Shown: positions 17,104-24,817 of the stretch, piece after piece
Position numbering within the stretch: position 1 is the first letter of the stretch
How the letters are laid out: each line of letters starts with the position of its first letter
NCBI GenBank assembly: GCA_031254575.1
Contig: JAIRUE010000069.1
Span: 2,330-66,329 of the forward strand
Direction of reading: 5' to 3'
From: Oscillospiraceae bacterium
Lineage (GTDB): Bacteria; Bacillota; Clostridia; Oscillospirales; UBA929
DNA length: 64,000 nt
Translations under genes and position numbers: made by a program
Notes under the pieces: model-generated
The model's input: only the letters and a program-made list of their open reading frames with translations
The model's database searches: none
Told to the model about the DNA's origin: nothing

Positions 17104-17203
17104 AAACGAAAAAGCTGACGCTTCCGCAAACAGTCTTGCAGAAGTCATCAGCTTTTTGAGCGATTCGGCCGGGATCACCGGCGCGGGGAGAACTTCATTC
17201 CCC
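17104..17203 (-). promoter_or_regulatory. fluoride riboswitch (crcB motif)-like leader plus intrinsic terminator, copy A
   Basis: Minus-sense RNA: GGGGAAUGAAGUUCUCCCC-GCGCCGGUGAUCCCGGCCGAAUC-GCUCAAAAAGC-UGAUGACUUCUGC. It has P1 with an AUGARGUUC loop, a 3-bp GCU/AGC hairpin and the CUGAUGA..CUUC 3' tail (GAAGU/ACUUC pseudoknot). Terminator AGCUGAUGACUUCUGC..GCGGAAGCGUCAGCU plus UUUUUCGUUU overlaps the aptamer 3' strand. Confidence 0.7.
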
Positions 17204-17217
17204 TTGTATTCAGATGA

Positions 17218-18231
17218 TTACGCGCGTTTCATTGCCTCCGCCACGGCGACGGCCACGGCGACGGTGGCGCCCACCATGGGATTGTTGCCCATGCCGAGGA
17301 AGCCCATCATTTCAACGTGGGCCGGAACGGAACTGGAGCCCGCGAACTGCGCGTCGGAGTGCATGCGCCCCATCGTGTCGGTCATGCCGTACGAAGCGGG
17401 CCCCGCCGCCATATTGTCCGGGTGCAGGGTGCGGCCCGTGCCGCCGCCGGAGGCCACGGAAAAATACCGTTTGCCCTGCTCCGCGCATTCCTTCTTATAC
17501 GTCCCCGCGACCGGATGCTGGAAGCGGGTGGGATTCGTGGAATTGCCGGTGATCGACACGTCCACCCCCTCCAGGTGCATGATGGCGACGCCCTCGCGCA
17601 CATCGTCCGCCCCGTAACAGCGCACCTGCGCGCGTTCGCCTTTGGAGTAGGCGGTTTCACGAACCACCTCAATATCTCCGGAGGCATAATCGAACGACGT
17701 CCGCACGTATGTAAAGCCGTTGATACGGGAGATGATCTGCGCGGCGTCTTTGCCCAGTCCGTTCAGGATGACGCGCAGCGGTTCCGTTCTCGCTTTGTTG
17801 GCGTTTTTAACGATGCCGATGGCGCCCTCGGCGGCGGCAAAACTCTCATGCCCGGCGAGGAACGCGAAGCACTTCGTTTCATCCCGGAGAAGCATCGCCC
17901 CAAGATTGCCGTGTCCGAGGCCGACCTTCCGGTCTTCGGCGACGCTGCCGGGGATGCAAAAACTCTGAAGCCCGATCCCGACGGCTTCCGAAGCGTCCGC
18001 CGCGTTTCCGGCTCCCTTTTTGATGGCGATGGCCGCGCCGGCGGTATAGGCCCAGCCGGCGTTTTCAAACGCGATAGGCTGAACGGATTTCACAATGTCA
18101 TACGGGTCCACGCCGGCTCCGCCGCAGATTTCCTTCGCGGCCTCCAAAGAGGCTATGCCGTACTGCGCAAGAACGCCGTTTATCTTGTCAATGCGGCGCT
18201 CGTAACTTTCAAACAACGCCATTCCGCTCAC
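17218..18231 (-). CDS. GGGtGRT-family protein (uncharacterised, 337 aa)
   Basis: Contains the eponymous motif ..FSVASGGGTGRTLHPDN.., and its length matches that family. The start overlaps the upstream gene's stop (ATGA-type coupling). Confidence 0.85.
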   Translation of the reverse strand: MSGMALFESYERRIDKINGVLAQYGIASLEAAKEICGGAGVDPYDIVKSVQPIAFENAGWAYTAGAAIAIKKGAGNAADASEAVGIGLQSFCIPGSVAEDRKVGLGHGNLGAMLLRDETKCFAFLAGHESFAAAEGAIGIVKNANKARTEPLRVILNGLGKDAAQIISRINGFTYVRTSFDYASGDIEVVRETAYSKGERAQVRCYGADDVREGVAIMHLEGVDVSITGNSTNPTRFQHPVAGTYKKECAEQGKRYFSVASGGGTGRTLHPDNMAAGPASYGMTDTMGRMHSDAQFAGSSSVPAHVEMMGFLGMGNNPMVGATVAVAVAVAEAMKRA

Positions 18232-18920
18232 TCCTTTCTGGGGTCTATGTACTTCGCCGCTTCTGCGAAGCGCCCGTAAGACCCTTTGGCTTTTTCAAGC
18301 GCCGCGCCCGCGTCCTCGCCCTTTTTCACGGCGTCCATCATCTTGCCGAGGCTGATAAACTCATACCCGATGATTTCGTTGTTTTCGTCAAGCGCGATCC
18401 GGCTGACATAACCCTCCGTCAGTTCAAGATAGCGCGCGCCTTTGGCCTTTGTGCCGAACATGGTCCCGACCTGGCTCCGCAGCCCCTTTCCCAAGTCCTC
18501 AAGGCTCGCGCCGACGGGCAGGCCGTCCTCGGAAAACGCGGTTTGCGTGCGCCCGTAGGCAATCTGCAAGAACAATTCACGCATAGCCACGTTGATGGCG
18601 TCGCAAACAAGGTCTGTGTTGAGCGCCTCCAGAATCGTCTTGCCGGGCAGGATCTCGGAAGCCATCGCCGCCGAATGCGTCATGCCGCTGCACCCCAGCG
18701 TTTCCACCAGCGCCTCCTCGATGATCCCATCCTTCACGTTGAGCGTCAGCTTACAGGCGCCCTGCTGGGGGGCGCACCAGCCAATGCCGTGTGTCAGCCC
18801 GCTGATGTCGCCGATTTCTTTAGCCCGCACCCATTTCCCTTCCTCCGGGATCGGGGCGGGGCCGTGGTCCGCGCCCTTTGCCACCGGACACATATGCGCT
18901 ACTTCCTCGGAATAAATCAT
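18228..18920 (-). CDS. NifU/IscU N-terminal-like Fe-S scaffold-type protein with a C-terminal extension (230 aa)
   Basis: Start chosen at MIYSEEV (ATG 18920, GGGGTGAG RBS). IscU-like Cys pattern: ..HMCPVAKG.., GWCAPQQGACKLTLNV, ETLGCSGMTHSAAMASE. Confidence 0.75.
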   Translation of the reverse strand: MIYSEEVAHMCPVAKGADHGPAPIPEEGKWVRAKEIGDISGLTHGIGWCAPQQGACKLTLNVKDGIIEEALVETLGCSGMTHSAAMASEILPGKTILEALNTDLVCDAINVAMRELFLQIAYGRTQTAFSEDGLPVGASLEDLGKGLRSQVGTMFGTKAKGARYLELTEGYVSRIALDENNEIIGYEFISLGKMMDAVKKGEDAGAALEKAKGSYGRFAEAAKYIDPRKE

Positions 18921-18933
18921 GTACTCACCCCTT

Positions 18934-19028
18934 AACAAGATATAAGCCAATGACCGCCGAATGGCAGAAGTCATCAGCTTAACAGCGGTTTGTCCGCTTT
19001 GCCGGAACCGGGAGAACCTCATTCCCGG
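18934..19028 (-). promoter_or_regulatory. fluoride riboswitch (crcB motif)-like leader plus terminator-like hairpin, copy B
   Basis: Minus-sense RNA: CCGGGAAUGAGGUUCUCCCGG-UUCCGGCAAAGCGGACAAACC-GCUGUUAAGC-UGAUGACUUCUGCC. Hairpin GCUGAUGAC..GGUCAUUGGC then UUAUAUCUUGUU. P1 covaries with copy A (GGGGA/UCCCC versus CCGGGA/UCCCGG). A 17-nt block is identical to copy A. Confidence 0.7.
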
Positions 19029-19032
19029 AAAC

Positions 19033-19061
19033 AGTATAGCACAGGACCGGGCCGTTTGCAA
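19033..19061 (-). promoter_or_regulatory. promoter TTGCAA-N17-TATACT driving riboswitch copy B
   Basis: -35 at 19061-19056 and -10 at 19038-19033. The predicted TSS falls at the 5' base of P1. Confidence 0.55.
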
Positions 19062-19155
19062 GCAAAAAAACCCCTATTTTTTCGGCCGCGGGCGGCGTTT
19101 GACACACAGGCAGGATGTATATTATACTGACATACAGACAGGAAGGGGAAATACG

Positions 19156-19782
19156 ATGGAAAAAGAGCAATATTTCAGCCAAGGCATGGAGCATCTTGAG
19201 GCCGGACGGCGCAAGGAAGCGGTCGTGTGTCTGGAAAGAGCCGCCGGAGATGAGTACGCGGAAGCGATGGTTCAACTGGGTCTGATTTATAACCGTTATG
19301 TTCCCGATTACAACGGCGTACCGCCGGATGATAAAACGGCCGCGTGTTGGTTTATGAGAGCCGCGTACCTCGACCACATTGAGGGGATGTTTCGGACGGG
19401 GTTTGTGTATAGCCACGGATTATTCGGTTTCGGGATACCGACAGCGCGGCAGGCCATGTACTGGTTCAAAAGAGCCGCGAAACTCGGACACGTCGAGGCG
19501 ATGTATGAAATCGGCCAAATGTATGACCACTGCCCCTACATTCGCGGCGGAAACAGGCGGAATAAGCGTAAGGCGATAAAATGGTTTGAAAAAGCCGCCC
19601 GCAGGGGGAACCGCCCGGCGATGGTGAGCCTTTATAATTACCTGTACGACCGTATAAAGCCAAACAAGCGCAAAGCCGCGTATTGGCGCGAACAAGCCGA
19701 AAAGATACCGTGTGACGAAATCGTGCAGGAGGATTATCCGTATGACAGCTTAAATCCGAAGCTGTTTACGCAGGAGGACTGA
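19156..19782 (+). CDS. Sel1-like repeat (SLR/TPR-like) protein, paralog 1
   Basis: Repeated A..W..KAA..G...A...LG..Y units (e.g. AMYWFKRAAKLGHVEAMYEIGQMY). GGAAGGGG RBS before ATG 19156. No signal peptide. Confidence 0.8.
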   Translation: MEKEQYFSQGMEHLEAGRRKEAVVCLERAAGDEYAEAMVQLGLIYNRYVPDYNGVPPDDKTAACWFMRAAYLDHIEGMFRTGFVYSHGLFGFGIPTARQAMYWFKRAAKLGHVEAMYEIGQMYDHCPYIRGGNRRNKRKAIKWFEKAARRGNRPAMVSLYNYLYDRIKPNKRKAAYWREQAEKIPCDEIVQEDYPYDSLNPKLFTQED

Positions 19783-19872
19783 TATGTCTTGTGGGTGAAA
19801 AGGAAGACGGAACGCTGGATAATTTCGGTCGCTATTACTCCCACTGACATACAAACAGGCAGGTGAAACGCG

Positions 19873-20466
19873 ATGGATTGTGAGGAATATCGTAGGCGGC
19901 GCATGGAGTTTCTTGAAACGAAACGCCGCGAGGAAGCGGAACACCGCGAGGAAGTGGCCAGACTGGAAAAAGCCGCCGAACAGGGCGATGCAGACGCGAT
20001 GGTTCAACTGGGTCTGGCGTATAACCACTATGTACGGTACAGCGGCATACCGCCGGATAATAAAACAGCCGCGTATTGGTTTATGAAAGCCGCGTATCTC
20101 GGCCATCTCGAAGGGATGTTTCATACGGGGCTTGTGTATAGCCACGGGTTATTCGGTTACGGGGAGCCGACGGCGCGGCAGGGTTTGTACTGGCTTAAAA
20201 GAGCCGCGAAGCTCGGACACGTCGAGGCGATGTATGAAATCGGACAACTGTATGCCAACTGTCCCTATATTCGCGGCAACACGCGGAATAAGCGCAAGGC
20301 GATAAAATGGTATGAAAAAGCCGCCCGCAGGGGGAAGCGTCTGGCGATGGTAAGCCTTTATCATCTGTACGACCGTGTAAAGCCAAACAAGCGCAAGGCC
20401 GCGTATTGGCGCGAACAGGCTGAAAAAACCCCACCTGGCGAATTCGACATCGTGATTTCAGATTAG
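19873..20466 (+). CDS. Sel1-like repeat protein, paralog 2
   Basis: Highly similar to paralog 1 over the SLR core and C-terminus (..KPNKRKAAYWREQAEK..). Its 5' UTR is also similar. Confidence 0.8.
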   Translation: MDCEEYRRRRMEFLETKRREEAEHREEVARLEKAAEQGDADAMVQLGLAYNHYVRYSGIPPDNKTAAYWFMKAAYLGHLEGMFHTGLVYSHGLFGYGEPTARQGLYWLKRAAKLGHVEAMYEIGQLYANCPYIRGNTRNKRKAIKWYEKAARRGKRLAMVSLYHLYDRVKPNKRKAAYWREQAEKTPPGEFDIVISD

Positions 20467-20515
20467 CCAAACGATAGTCTCATGCTGTTAATCGATGAAA
20501 ACGGAGGTATTGGCA

Positions 20516-21169
20516 ATGGAAATTGAATATGGGTACACCCCGCAGGAACTTGAGGGCGCTATAACCGGATTGATTGAGAAGTATAAGATAACACAAGAGA
20601 TTTCGCCATATAGGCTGTATTTTACAGCCTTAACAGACAATGAGTATGCCGAAAAAGAGAATGCCGAGGATACGAAGGAAAAGGCTCTGACGCTCGTGAA
20701 AGAGTTGGGGGCGGCAAAGCTGTTTGGGATGGGGCTGTTATATTATACCGGCAATGGCGCGCAAAGCGTGGAACAGGACAGAAAAAAAGCCGTCGCCTAT
20801 TTTGCCGTAGCGGCGGAACACGGACACGTGGAGGCAATGTTTAACACTGCCTTTTGCTTTATGAACGGCGACGGGCTGGCACAAAACCGCAAAGAAGCGC
20901 TGTACTGGTTTATCAAAGCGGCGCAAAATGGAAACGACAGATCCATTTACTTTTTAGCGGACTTTCACATGGCGGGGTACGGAGTTATTGAAACGAACGC
21001 CGCTGAAGCCGCGAAATACTACGGAACGTCAGCTAATATGGGGCATCCCGCGTCGTTTTATAATCTGGGAGCGCTGCTTTATAACGGCATTGGTATTGCG
21101 AAAGATGAATATGCGGGACTGAAGTTGATTGAAAAAGCGGCGGAATTAGGATTTACGCCAAATCAATGA
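20516..21169 (+). CDS. Sel1-like repeat protein, divergent paralog 3
   Basis: AVAYFAVAAEHGHVEAMFNTAFCF, ALYWFIKAAQNGN, AAKYYGTSANMGHPASFYNLGALLY. GGAGG RBS before ATG 20516. Confidence 0.75.
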   Translation: MEIEYGYTPQELEGAITGLIEKYKITQEISPYRLYFTALTDNEYAEKENAEDTKEKALTLVKELGAAKLFGMGLLYYTGNGAQSVEQDRKKAVAYFAVAAEHGHVEAMFNTAFCFMNGDGLAQNRKEALYWFIKAAQNGNDRSIYFLADFHMAGYGVIETNAAEAAKYYGTSANMGHPASFYNLGALLYNGIGIAKDEYAGLKLIEKAAELGFTPNQ

Positions 21170-23749: not shown

Positions 23750-24817
23750 TCAGCTCACAAATTCCGATACCATTTCTTTTTGCTCGAACAACACGCAGCC
23801 GCCCGTGTGCGCGGCGGTAAGAACGCCTTCCTCCCGCAGACGGGCAAACAGCGGCGATTTTAACGCTTCTCTCAACGATACGTTCCGAAGATTAACGTCC
23901 GAGTAAGGTGAAAAGGGGCATGGCTCGGCGCCGCCGGCCGCGCTTATGTGGAAAAAGCCCCGACCGGCCGCTAAACAGCCTCCCAATTCCGCTTCATCGC
24001 CGGGAAACGAAATGACGATCATCCCTTTTTGACGGGTCCGCGCTTCACGGACGCGGGCCGCCAGTTTGTCCCGGTCATCGCCGCCAAGCGCGAGCTCAGG
24101 CCGTTCCACCGGGACATACTCCACAAACAAGACGGCTTTACATCCCATTTTCTCAAGGCTGTCCATATAAACGCTGTCCGTCACCACGTCGAGGTTATCC
24201 GACGTCACTGTGACAGAAGCTCCAAAAAATAATCCGGATTGCCTCAGACGGCGCATCGTCTCCACAGTCTGTTTATATACGCCTTGGCCGCGTCTGGCGT
24301 CAGTGGCGGCCTCGCCGCCCTCAATGCTGACCATAGGAATAAGGCTGCGGTGAGAATCAAGCAGTCCCATCGCGCGGTCGCCGAGCAGGGTTCCGTTCGT
24401 AAACACCGGGAACAGAAGTTTTTTATGCCCGGCGGCGGCTTCCAGCACGTCATATCGAAGAAACGGCTCGCCGCCCGCCAGCAGAATGACCGAAACGCCC
24501 AGCGCCTCCGCGTCCGCAAAAACACGTTCCCACATGATAAGCGGCAGTTCCTGAGAATCATGGCAGACATGGCCGGCCCGCGCGTAGCAGCCGGCGCAGC
24601 GCAGATTGCAGCTGCCCGTGATGCTGGCAATCAAAATGGGAGGGATATGTTCGCCGGCCTGCTCAAACGCGTGCCGGCGCCGGGCGGCCTTTCGGGCGGC
24701 GGCCGCGGCCTGCAGCAAAAACGCGCTCTGCTTTGGATTCTTCGGCGTGATTCTCAGCGCGTCCCCGATAAGGCGTTGTATCCCATCGCTTAAAACCTGT
24801 TCCAGATGATTGTTCAT
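23750..24817 (-). CDS. radical SAM enzyme (355 aa), substrate unknown
   Basis: CNLRCAGCY CxxxCxxC motif, GGEPF SAM-binding motif, and extra C-terminal Cys residues (GGCLAA..EPCPFSP..TGGCVLF). Confidence 0.8.
   Translation of the reverse strand: MNNHLEQVLSDGIQRLIGDALRITPKNPKQSAFLLQAAAAARKAARRRHAFEQAGEHIPPILIASITGSCNLRCAGCYARAGHVCHDSQELPLIMWERVFADAEALGVSVILLAGGEPFLRYDVLEAAAGHKKLLFPVFTNGTLLGDRAMGLLDSHRSLIPMVSIEGGEAATDARRGQGVYKQTVETMRRLRQSGLFFGASVTVTSDNLDVVTDSVYMDSLEKMGCKAVLFVEYVPVERPELALGGDDRDKLAARVREARTRQKGMIVISFPGDEAELGGCLAAGRGFFHISAAGGAEPCPFSPYSDVNLRNVSLREALKSPLFARLREEGVLTAAHTGGCVLFEQKEMVSEFVS

Follow-up and report, generated by a model that had tools for sequence, protein, structure and literature searches.

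An orphan NifU-like/GGGtGRT protein pair behind serial fluoride riboswitches as a candidate for the missing enolase

What is a pair of proteins without an assigned function doing behind a fluoride riboswitch? This question is posed by a 64 kb stretch of DNA from an Oscillospiraceae bacterium (contig JAIRUE010000069.1, positions 2,330 to 66,329), hereafter the window, in which an operon lying entirely on the minus strand combines two fluoride-riboswitch leaders with genes for a NifU-like protein, a GGGtGRT protein and a cation/proton antiporter. A preliminary description, made from the sequence alone, had placed the pair first behind a riboswitch-like leader, with a second such leader and the antiporter after it; this layout is confirmed, with all five elements lying where they had been placed and the leaders and antiporter matching their respective families (Table 1). 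The operon can be regarded as a variant of known fluoride-riboswitch operons whose cargo is an orphan two-protein system and a candidate for the missing enolase. The best explanation that can be offered, held tentatively and at rather less than even confidence, is that the pair constitutes an iron- or iron-sulphur (Fe-S)-dependent, fluoride-insensitive enolase substitute placed behind serial ON switches.

The possibility that such pairs are never associated with fluoride elements in other genomes can be set aside, as a survey of GGGtGRT neighbourhoods and upstream RNAs, run both outward from pair loci and from 120 sampled riboswitch loci, found the association recurrently. In the gammaproteobacteria (Vibrio, Aliivibrio, Photobacterium, Shewanella, Moritella and Psychromonas), 71 of 72 loci have a riboswitch on the same strand as the pair and some 100-300 nt ahead of it. 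These 71 are all the loci that are testable, since in the exception (L217) the contig end falls before the leader. Ten sampled leaders from this group were confirmed by Rfam, with scores of 38.8-61.2 bits (RF01734, gathering score 34 bits), and the pair stands alone behind its riboswitch in the two Vibrionaceae/Shewanella loci whose open reading frames (ORFs) were read. A narrow DNA pattern, which runs from the aptamer 3′ end to the N-terminus of the NifU-like protein over 25-55 nt and undercounts leaders, recovered seven further riboswitch-pair cases among GTDB representatives, five intact and two apparent relics. The intact cases, all above the Rfam gathering score, are found in Pelosinus, Treponema, Anaerotignum neopropionicum, a Ruminococcaceae genome and an Oscillospiraceae genome. 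The operon of A. neopropionicum DSM 3847, a cultured isolate, mirrors that of the window in having an antiporter of the same family after the pair; here a single leader precedes genes for the NifU-like protein, GGGtGRT, Usp and Na_H_Exchanger (L286:4048-7507, minus strand). The relics, in Candidatus Colivicinus equi (L284:2940-3060, minus strand) and an Erysipelotrichaceae metagenome-assembled genome (MAG; L290:1260-1345, plus strand), retain only the 3′ half of the aptamer together with a terminator-like hairpin, and have a -10-like TGTTAAAAT box at the expected position of P1; their pairs share 94% identity, in spite of the different taxa to which the two genomes are assigned.

A further connection is provided by two Geobacter MAGs (L063:2437-5008 and L077:686-3236), in which crcB, a DUF190 gene, the NifU-like gene and GGGtGRT follow one another on one strand. 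As no riboswitch was detectable at either locus, these clusters tie the pair to a fluoride channel independently of the riboswitch. Taken from the riboswitch side, the pair was the cargo of one of the 120 sampled riboswitches (in Shewanella). Taken from the side of the pair, none of the 80 closest GGGtGRT loci, which are GTDB species representatives mostly from Oscillospiraceae and other Clostridia, carries a fluoride riboswitch according to our covariance model R1, built from 86 aptamers. The closest relatives of the riboswitch-positive pairs outside the gammaproteobacteria are themselves riboswitch-negative (for the window, L281 and L282 at 92% identity), and the fluoride wiring has therefore been gained or lost several times independently. 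On these sequence comparisons, there is strong support for the view that fluoride regulons in at least four phyla have genuinely and repeatedly taken up the pair. The earlier idea of a fluoride-response module thus stands as regards a recurrent link (71 of 71 gammaproteobacterial loci, five other species and two Geobacter loci) but not as regards dedication to fluoride (0 of 80). The association is partly new. An 'iscU' gene was listed among those associated with the crcB RNA, with an Aliivibrio fischeri copy in the alignment, by Weinberg et al. in 2010 (Additional file 1, PMC2864571), a hint at one half of the pair, whilst no paper linking GGGtGRT to fluoride was found. In A. fischeri ES114 the leader lies on chromosome II (NC_006841.2:1258800-1258735).

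Which function has been recruited is suggested by the neighbours of the pair in other genomes. In six loci (L282, L025, L031, L032, L044 and L046), five of them among the 80 closest, the pair directly follows pgk-tpi-gpmI; L282 encodes the closest homologue of the window's NifU-like protein, at 93% identity. The classical Firmicutes operon has the order gap-pgk-tpi-pgm-eno, and the pair thus occupies the slot of eno. In addition, pgk-tpi adjoins the pair in L060, eno is its divergent neighbour in L078 and pyruvate kinase its convergent neighbour in L299. A divergent clade, approximately 55% identical, has the order apgM, pair, His_Phos_1 gene, and its apgM, encoding an archaeal-type independent phosphoglycerate mutase (iPGM), scores 517 bits against the NCBIfam equivalog NF003104, for which the cut-off is 489. 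This glycolytic synteny is real but a minority pattern. Between GGGtGRT and the His_Phos_1 gene, the divergent clade also encodes a conserved 317-aa protein without a family match (L291:7005-7955, plus strand), perhaps a third component, whose gene begins in overlap with the stop codon of GGGtGRT.

Enolase is the textbook target of fluoride, with a reported Ki of roughly 80 µM (PMC11139923). The gene itself, eno, is a common cargo of fluoride riboswitches (PMC11139923) and was found behind one in L103 and L164. Several anaerobes that carry the pair are, moreover, reported to lack enolase. Oscillibacter valericigenes has no authentic enolase, and an 'alternative enolase-like enzyme' was postulated in its genome paper (PMC3558957); this species carries the pair (WP_235221604/605). 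Segatella copri DSM 18205 joined these organisms in 2026 as a strain lacking eno (bioRxiv 10.64898/2026.06.02.729653), and S. copri expresses its GGGtGRT protein strongly, as an immunodominant antigen (PMC12078515). In the Hungate1000 collection, enolase is absent from about half of the Butyrivibrio strains, and also from Prevotella and Lachnospiraceae (PMC6118326), whereas exactly one PF14057 (GGGtGRT) gene is present in every Butyrivibrio strain, whether enolase-positive or -negative (Supplementary Table 6). Rumen genomes are enriched 1.7-fold in PF14057 and depleted in the enolase Pfams. The distribution in Butyrivibrio was a test that the enolase hypothesis could have failed. As late as 2024 the enolase gap was described as unsolved (PMC11187502).

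For gut and rumen anaerobes the literature records high expression of the pair but no characterisation of it (PMC11204068, PMC7035244, PMC12078515), and its expression is strongly iron-dependent in Bacteroides thetaiotaomicron (BT0173-4) and Clostridium pasteurianum (PMC10434189, PMC5395762). Transposon mutants of BT0173-4 came from the same B. thetaiotaomicron glucose-signalling screen as those of pfkA. It is strongly supported that in most anaerobes the pair is a constitutive, very abundant, iron-dependent housekeeping module. The statement in the preliminary description that GGGtGRT has no assigned function holds for the searchable literature. Between Clostridia, Treponema, Adiutrix, Holophagales, Geobacter, Fibrobacteres, Bacteroidota and one Methanobacteriaceae genome the pair is 80-93% identical. 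GGGtGRT lies directly 3′ of a 230-aa NifU-like gene in 74 of the 80 closest loci; the remaining six have no adjacent NifU-like match, at least some of them being cut at a contig end. The same arrangement is found in the gammaproteobacterial loci with full upstream sequence, in the divergent clade and in the archaeal locus.

The NifU-like protein was described as an IscU/NifU-N-like protein of 230 aa with three conserved Cys, and so it is: exactly three Cys are invariant across subfamilies (C49, 18776-18774; C77, 18692-18690; C106, 18605-18603), and these align to the Cys positions of IscU. Its NifU_N match (PF01592, 21.1 bits) falls just under the Pfam gathering score of 22, and its scores against the NCBIfam models TIGR01999, TIGR03419 and TIGR01994 (27.3, 22.4 and 18.1) lie far below the respective cut-offs (187.9, 192.4 and 92.5). 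Because of these sub-threshold scores it is classed from its sequence as IscU-like rather than as a canonical IscU. Structures of IscU/NifU chains in the Protein Data Bank (PDB) match residues 50-109 only, with E-values of 1e-4 to 1e-2. In common with the IscU/NifU/SufU scaffolds, the N-terminal ~110 residues align to IscU structures and keep the three Cys. Unlike them, the protein has an additional C-terminal domain of ~110 residues, in which no known domain was recognized, is paired with GGGtGRT wherever the sequence suffices (74 of the 80 closest loci) and has no cysteine desulfurase among the immediate neighbours scanned. It is ~90% identical across phyla; the exact window protein, looked up on other contigs, was not found there.

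The GGGtGRT protein matches PF14057 over profile positions 1-327 of 327 (637.5 bits against a gathering score of 27, E = 4.7e-192) and contains the motif SGGGTGRT (17451-17428; GGGTGRT at 17448-17428), which is invariant in its homologues. The family, the motif and the coupling to the NifU-like gene had been recognized correctly; the length of 337 aa is probably slightly too great. The start is most likely ATG 18222, giving 334 aa, rather than GTG 18231 (337 aa), because the homologues begin MALFESYE. This ATG lies 5 nt after the upstream TGA, with an AGGAG ahead, whilst the GTG start would overlap the stop codon of the NifU-like gene; the two genes are tightly coupled either way. A profile search of 1.84 billion representatives at 50% identity found no distant relative of known function, the family there consisting of about three full-length representatives in addition to fragments and frameshifted calls, and neither a sequence nor a profile match was found in the PDB. 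A first AlphaFold2 (AF2) model, based on 36 near-identical sequences, had a mean confidence (pLDDT) of 62.7 and its Foldseek matches were meaningless. A second, with the divergent clade added, reached a pLDDT of 84.7 and a predicted template-modelling score (pTM) of 0.87, and combines a helical domain at the N-terminus with a Rossmann-like alpha/beta domain. In this model the loop with the motif comes after a beta-strand, an arrangement like that of phosphate-binding loops, although it is disordered and of low confidence. Foldseek comparison of the second model with the PDB returned nothing at E < 0.02 or TM > 0.3, but only generic Rossmann-like similarities.

How might such a pair work? In the proposed mechanism, a single minus-strand transcription unit would start from a promoter near 19040 and contain two ON-type fluoride riboswitches in series. 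When fluoride rises, aptamer 1 would fold, the overlapping terminator would be blocked and the genes for the NifU-like and GGGtGRT proteins would be transcribed, whilst aptamer 2 and its terminator would gate read-through into the antiporter. The two proteins would form one metalloenzyme, in which the IscU-like subunit would hold an Fe-S cluster or iron on the three invariant Cys and the GGGtGRT subunit would bind a phosphorylated substrate through its Gly-rich loop. Ligation by three Cys would leave one Fe free for a substrate hydroxyl, as in the Fe-S hydro-lyases, to which the pair has no homology and whose kind of cluster is only putative here. The enzyme would act at the phosphoglycerate/phosphoenolpyruvate (PEP) node, most likely dehydrating 2-phosphoglycerate (2-PG) to PEP. 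Fluoride poisons canonical enolase at its Mg2+/phosphate site. An enzyme that does not use such a site would keep lower glycolysis running under fluoride, and such a fluoride-proof step would explain the fluoride induction in Vibrionaceae and others. The pair would likewise explain the loss of enolase in some gut and rumen anaerobes. The co-regulated antiporter would counteract the acidification that results from HF entry, which is the established view of its role (PMC11139923).

A more specific version, somewhat more doubtful than the general reading but still a real possibility, is that the pair is the 'missing enolase' itself, a new, non-homologous, two-subunit iron/Fe-S 2-phosphoglycerate dehydratase that is intrinsically fluoride-resistant. 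It would be the main or a parallel enolase of many strict anaerobes, the sole one in enolase-negative Oscillibacter, Butyrivibrio and Segatella/Prevotella, and, in Vibrionaceae and others, a back-up induced by fluoride. Its NifU-like member would be the first catalytic subunit with an IscU fold, proteins of this fold not being known to have such a role. The likeness to enolase is proposed for the reaction alone, not for membership of the superfamily. Canonical enolase (PF00113/PF03952) and the pair share the operon slot after pgk-tpi-pgm and, as proposed, the reaction, and both are highly conserved, very abundant and cargo of fluoride riboswitches. In contrast to enolase with its Mg2+ site, the pair consists of two subunits without similarity to it in sequence or fold, has an IscU-like Cys triad and is expressed in dependence on iron. 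Hydro-lyases are known to occur as iron-dependent and iron-free isoenzymes, as exemplified by the class I Fe-S fumarase FumA and the class II FumC, and by the Fe-S L-serine dehydratases. In such cases an anaerobic enzyme that is sensitive to oxygen and regulated by iron occurs beside, or instead of, an analogue lacking the metal cluster, and the pair may be likened to the former. By this analogy, an enolase substitute would account for the iron-dependent expression; it also accounts for the high abundance of the pair, its conservation, its stand-by status in Vibrionaceae and the normal growth of B. thetaiotaomicron mutants, in which eno is retained.

A number of observations weigh against an enolase substitute. 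For the enzyme inferred here, Pfam, PDB-sequence and Foldseek comparisons showed no likeness to enolase or to any known dehydratase. Mutants of B. thetaiotaomicron in BT0173-4 grow normally on glucose, which fits redundancy with eno and equally a non-glycolytic role. By unbiased counts, glycolytic neighbours occur in only ~10-15% of loci, most pairs being alone among unrelated genes. Given how common the pair is in gut anaerobes, finding it in species without enolase is by itself weak evidence, and for O. valericigenes the pair comes from strain An890 whereas the report of a missing enolase concerns the type strain. Finally, GGGtGRT has no universally invariant Cys. C118 had been considered as a universal fourth cluster ligand and was rejected, since P0271 and with it the divergent clade have Asn at this position; a cluster would thus have to be held by the NifU-like partner.

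Of the alternatives, the one that survives best, although unlikely, is that of dosage compensation, whereby fluoride would inhibit the pair itself, a housekeeping enzyme with some other function, and the riboswitch would raise its amount. That a fluoride regulon may serve to overproduce the enzyme under attack is accepted (PMC11139923), and enolase and pyrophosphatase are thought to be examples. The constitutive abundance of the pair in most anaerobes also suits this view, as does the ordinary housekeeping type of the window copy, which is 92% identical to its riboswitch-free counterparts L281 and L282. It is less easily reconciled with the gammaproteobacteria, where a riboswitch before every testable locus (71 of 71) looks like a stand-by function that is needed only under fluoride, and it leaves both the phosphoglycerate mutase synteny and the enolase-negative genomes unexplained.

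The pair might instead assemble, repair or protect Fe-S or other metal centres, or buffer iron, and be induced because fluoride perturbs metal homeostasis. Protection or repair of such centres was given as an example in the preliminary description, yet no specific support for it was found, and the mutase synteny and enolase-negative genomes point rather to an enolase substitute; we consider it improbable. It would make immediate sense of an IscU-like fold with three cluster-binding Cys and of the strongly iron-dependent expression. Fluoride does disturb divalent-metal homeostasis (PMC11139923), and the 'iscU' of Weinberg et al. was discussed in 2010 under oxidative stress. However, the NifU-like protein scores far below the IscU/NifU/SufU family cut-offs, and expression that drops under iron limitation is what an enzyme consuming iron would be expected to show, whereas a system for repair or scavenging would not. 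Neither a cysteine desulfurase nor a chaperone is present among the immediate neighbours scanned, and cysteine desulfurase, ISC and SUF genes are absent from the top 25 Pfam families of the immediate neighbours of related loci, as well as from the fully annotated loci. In the window, whose flanks were partly scanned, the nearest genes scanned on either side of the operon encode a Sel1-repeat protein, a protein without a Pfam match and a histidine kinase. An abundant, stoichiometric GGGtGRT protein with a phosphate-loop-like motif, and the glycolytic synteny, would also be left unexplained.

A marginally slimmer chance is given to a pair whose reaction at the phosphoglycerate node is not the conversion of 2-PG to PEP but, for example, a (phospho)glycerate-to-pyruvate bypass together with the His_Phos_1 phosphatase, or a serine-related step, either of which is similarly improbable. 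The divergent clade lends itself to this interpretation, as its pair is flanked by apgM and a His_Phos_1 phosphatase or mutase, the latter weakly matching NCBIfam phosphoserine phosphatases. The main-family operons do not, for they put the pair exactly in the eno slot and contain no phosphatase; moreover, a bypass that loses the PEP phosphate would cost strict fermenters ATP, and the link with fluoride fits enolase best. The last alternative, a chance juxtaposition in which the pair landed between a riboswitch and a riboswitch-antiporter module or leader 1 is a fortuitous or decaying copy, is very improbable and largely refuted by the comparative data: riboswitch-free closest loci (80 of 80) and the great frequency of riboswitch-antiporter modules in Clostridia (51 of 120 sampled riboswitches) would permit it, but both aptamers lie well above the Rfam threshold with intact aptamer-overlapping terminators, the same wiring occurs independently in many lineages and the two leaders differ in their variable parts, so that no recent duplication is involved.

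An enolase substitute behind serial switches further presupposes leaders that respond to fluoride, and the sequences of both are suggestive in this respect. Both window aptamers exceed the RF01734 gathering score, their relatives scoring 36-61 bits, and R1 gives them 57.5 bits (aptamer 1) and 58.6 bits (aptamer 2); R1 replaced a crude regular expression that had matched one of the two window copies and nothing in related loci. The conserved aptamer 3′ strand, GCUGAUGACUUCUGC, has an alternative pairing in each leader, where it can become the 5′ side of a hairpin with a U-rich tail behind it. In platform 1 the hairpin re-uses the aptamer 3′ strand GCUGAUGACUU, and the RNA from 18985 to 18925 folds with -21.4 kcal/mol (z = -3.9), although its U-tract is weak. 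Platform 2 folds with -30.1 kcal/mol (z = -4.2), and none of 200 shuffled sequences folds as well. As the terminators overlap the aptamers, both leaders are expected to be transcriptional ON switches and should switch on with fluoride. Riboswitch 1 was also considered as a recent duplicate of riboswitch 2 and rejected, since the linker hairpins and platforms differ.

Table 1. Elements of the operon, with positions in the 64 kb window
Element	Position	Strand	Evidence or remark
Sigma-70-type promoter, TTGCAA / 17-nt spacer / TG-TATACT	19033..19061	-	Consensus scan match only; adjoins aptamer 1
Fluoride riboswitch aptamer 1 (crcB RNA motif)	18958..19035	-	RF01734 45.7 bits, E = 1.8e-9
Expression platform 1, terminator-like	18933..18981	-	Hairpin 18981-18943 and U-rich tail AUAUCUUGUU
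NifU-like / IscU-fold protein, 230 aa	18228..18920	-	Pfam NifU_N 21.1 bits
GGGtGRT protein, 334 aa from ATG 18222 (most likely start)	17218..18222	-	PF14057 637.5 bits
Fluoride riboswitch aptamer 2	17132..17211	-	RF01734 42.6 bits; begins 6 nt past GGGtGRT stop codon
Expression platform 2, strong terminator hairpin	17109..17157	-	AAAAAGCUGAUGACUUCUGCAAG...GCGGAAGCGUCAGCUUUUU, overlapping aptamer 3′ strand
Cation/proton antiporter, Na_H_Exchanger, CPA2-like, 396 aa	15893..17083	-	PF00999 152.9 bits

No promoter was found before aptamer 2 in a consensus scan of 17212-17300, and the antiporter therefore appears to be gated twice. The window thus shares with known fluoride-riboswitch regulons, whose members include crcB, CLC-F, Na+/H+ antiporters, enolase, pyrophosphatase and Usp, the same aptamer, the ON logic of overlapping terminators and classical cargo in the form of the antiporter, Usp being another such gene. 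It differs from them in that its first cargo is an uncharacterised two-protein module, in that two aptamers stand in series in one transcript and in that no fluoride exporter is encoded within the 64 kb. As to the last point, the reported absence of a crcB or eriC-F type channel was borne out, as tblastn with CrcB and CLC-F proteins from riboswitch loci and motif scans found no homologue in the window. The statement that antiporters are among the genes downstream of crcB-motif RNAs proved equally sound. A homologue of the window antiporter is the first gene in 51 of the 120 sampled riboswitch loci, in agreement with a review (PMC11139923), and the window protein has both the Na_H_Exchanger domain and a position directly behind a fluoride riboswitch. 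The same review views the fluoride-riboswitch regulon as restoring the metabolism that fluoride has hit (PMC11139923).

Several further features of these loci were observed. In the gammaproteobacterial leaders (L205:2108-2250 and L098:402-548) a CUGUAGG or CUGUGGG box ~100 nt downstream offers a possible pairing partner for the aptamer 3′ strand GACUCCUACAG, and in Shewanella a second hairpin lies over the ribosome-binding site, which makes for a long expression platform of uncertain type. Five tandem identical tRNA genes precede the Moritella riboswitch (L239:444-1346, minus strand), and an Rfam 'pan' motif stands before panB right after one of the Geobacter pairs (L077:3318-3411, plus strand). 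A phage-integrase-family gene is found directly 3′ of GGGtGRT on the same strand in L298 (5131-6063) and in five of the 39 same-strand downstream neighbours scanned (L001-L080, alignment A6); the presence of such genes in several unrelated genomes may reflect a recurrent integration site. In the window itself, three tandem Sel1-repeat paralogues (273, 197 and 224 aa; 18961-21169, plus strand) lie divergently and immediately upstream of the operon, and a strong promoter-like site (19099-19128) is placed back-to-back with the riboswitch promoter. A few kb away, a 355-aa ORF (23750-24817, minus strand) carries the CxxxCxxC-type motif SCNLRCAGCY, which suggests a radical-SAM enzyme.

The pair belongs to the most conserved and abundant proteins of gut and rumen anaerobes and has no fold relative in the PDB search, and its repeated capture by fluoride riboswitches and by crcB provides the first solid physiological handle on it. 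Glycolysis without enolase, as in Butyrivibrio proteoclasticus, O. valericigenes and S. copri, has been a puzzle since 2010 and now becomes directly testable. If the enolase-substitute proposal is true, the pair would represent a new enzyme class in central metabolism and would explain the iron-dependent remodelling of glycolysis in Bacteroides. It would also supply a glycolytic step that is proof against fluoride, which could be of use in organofluorine bioengineering and would bear on the effects of fluoride on the microbiota.

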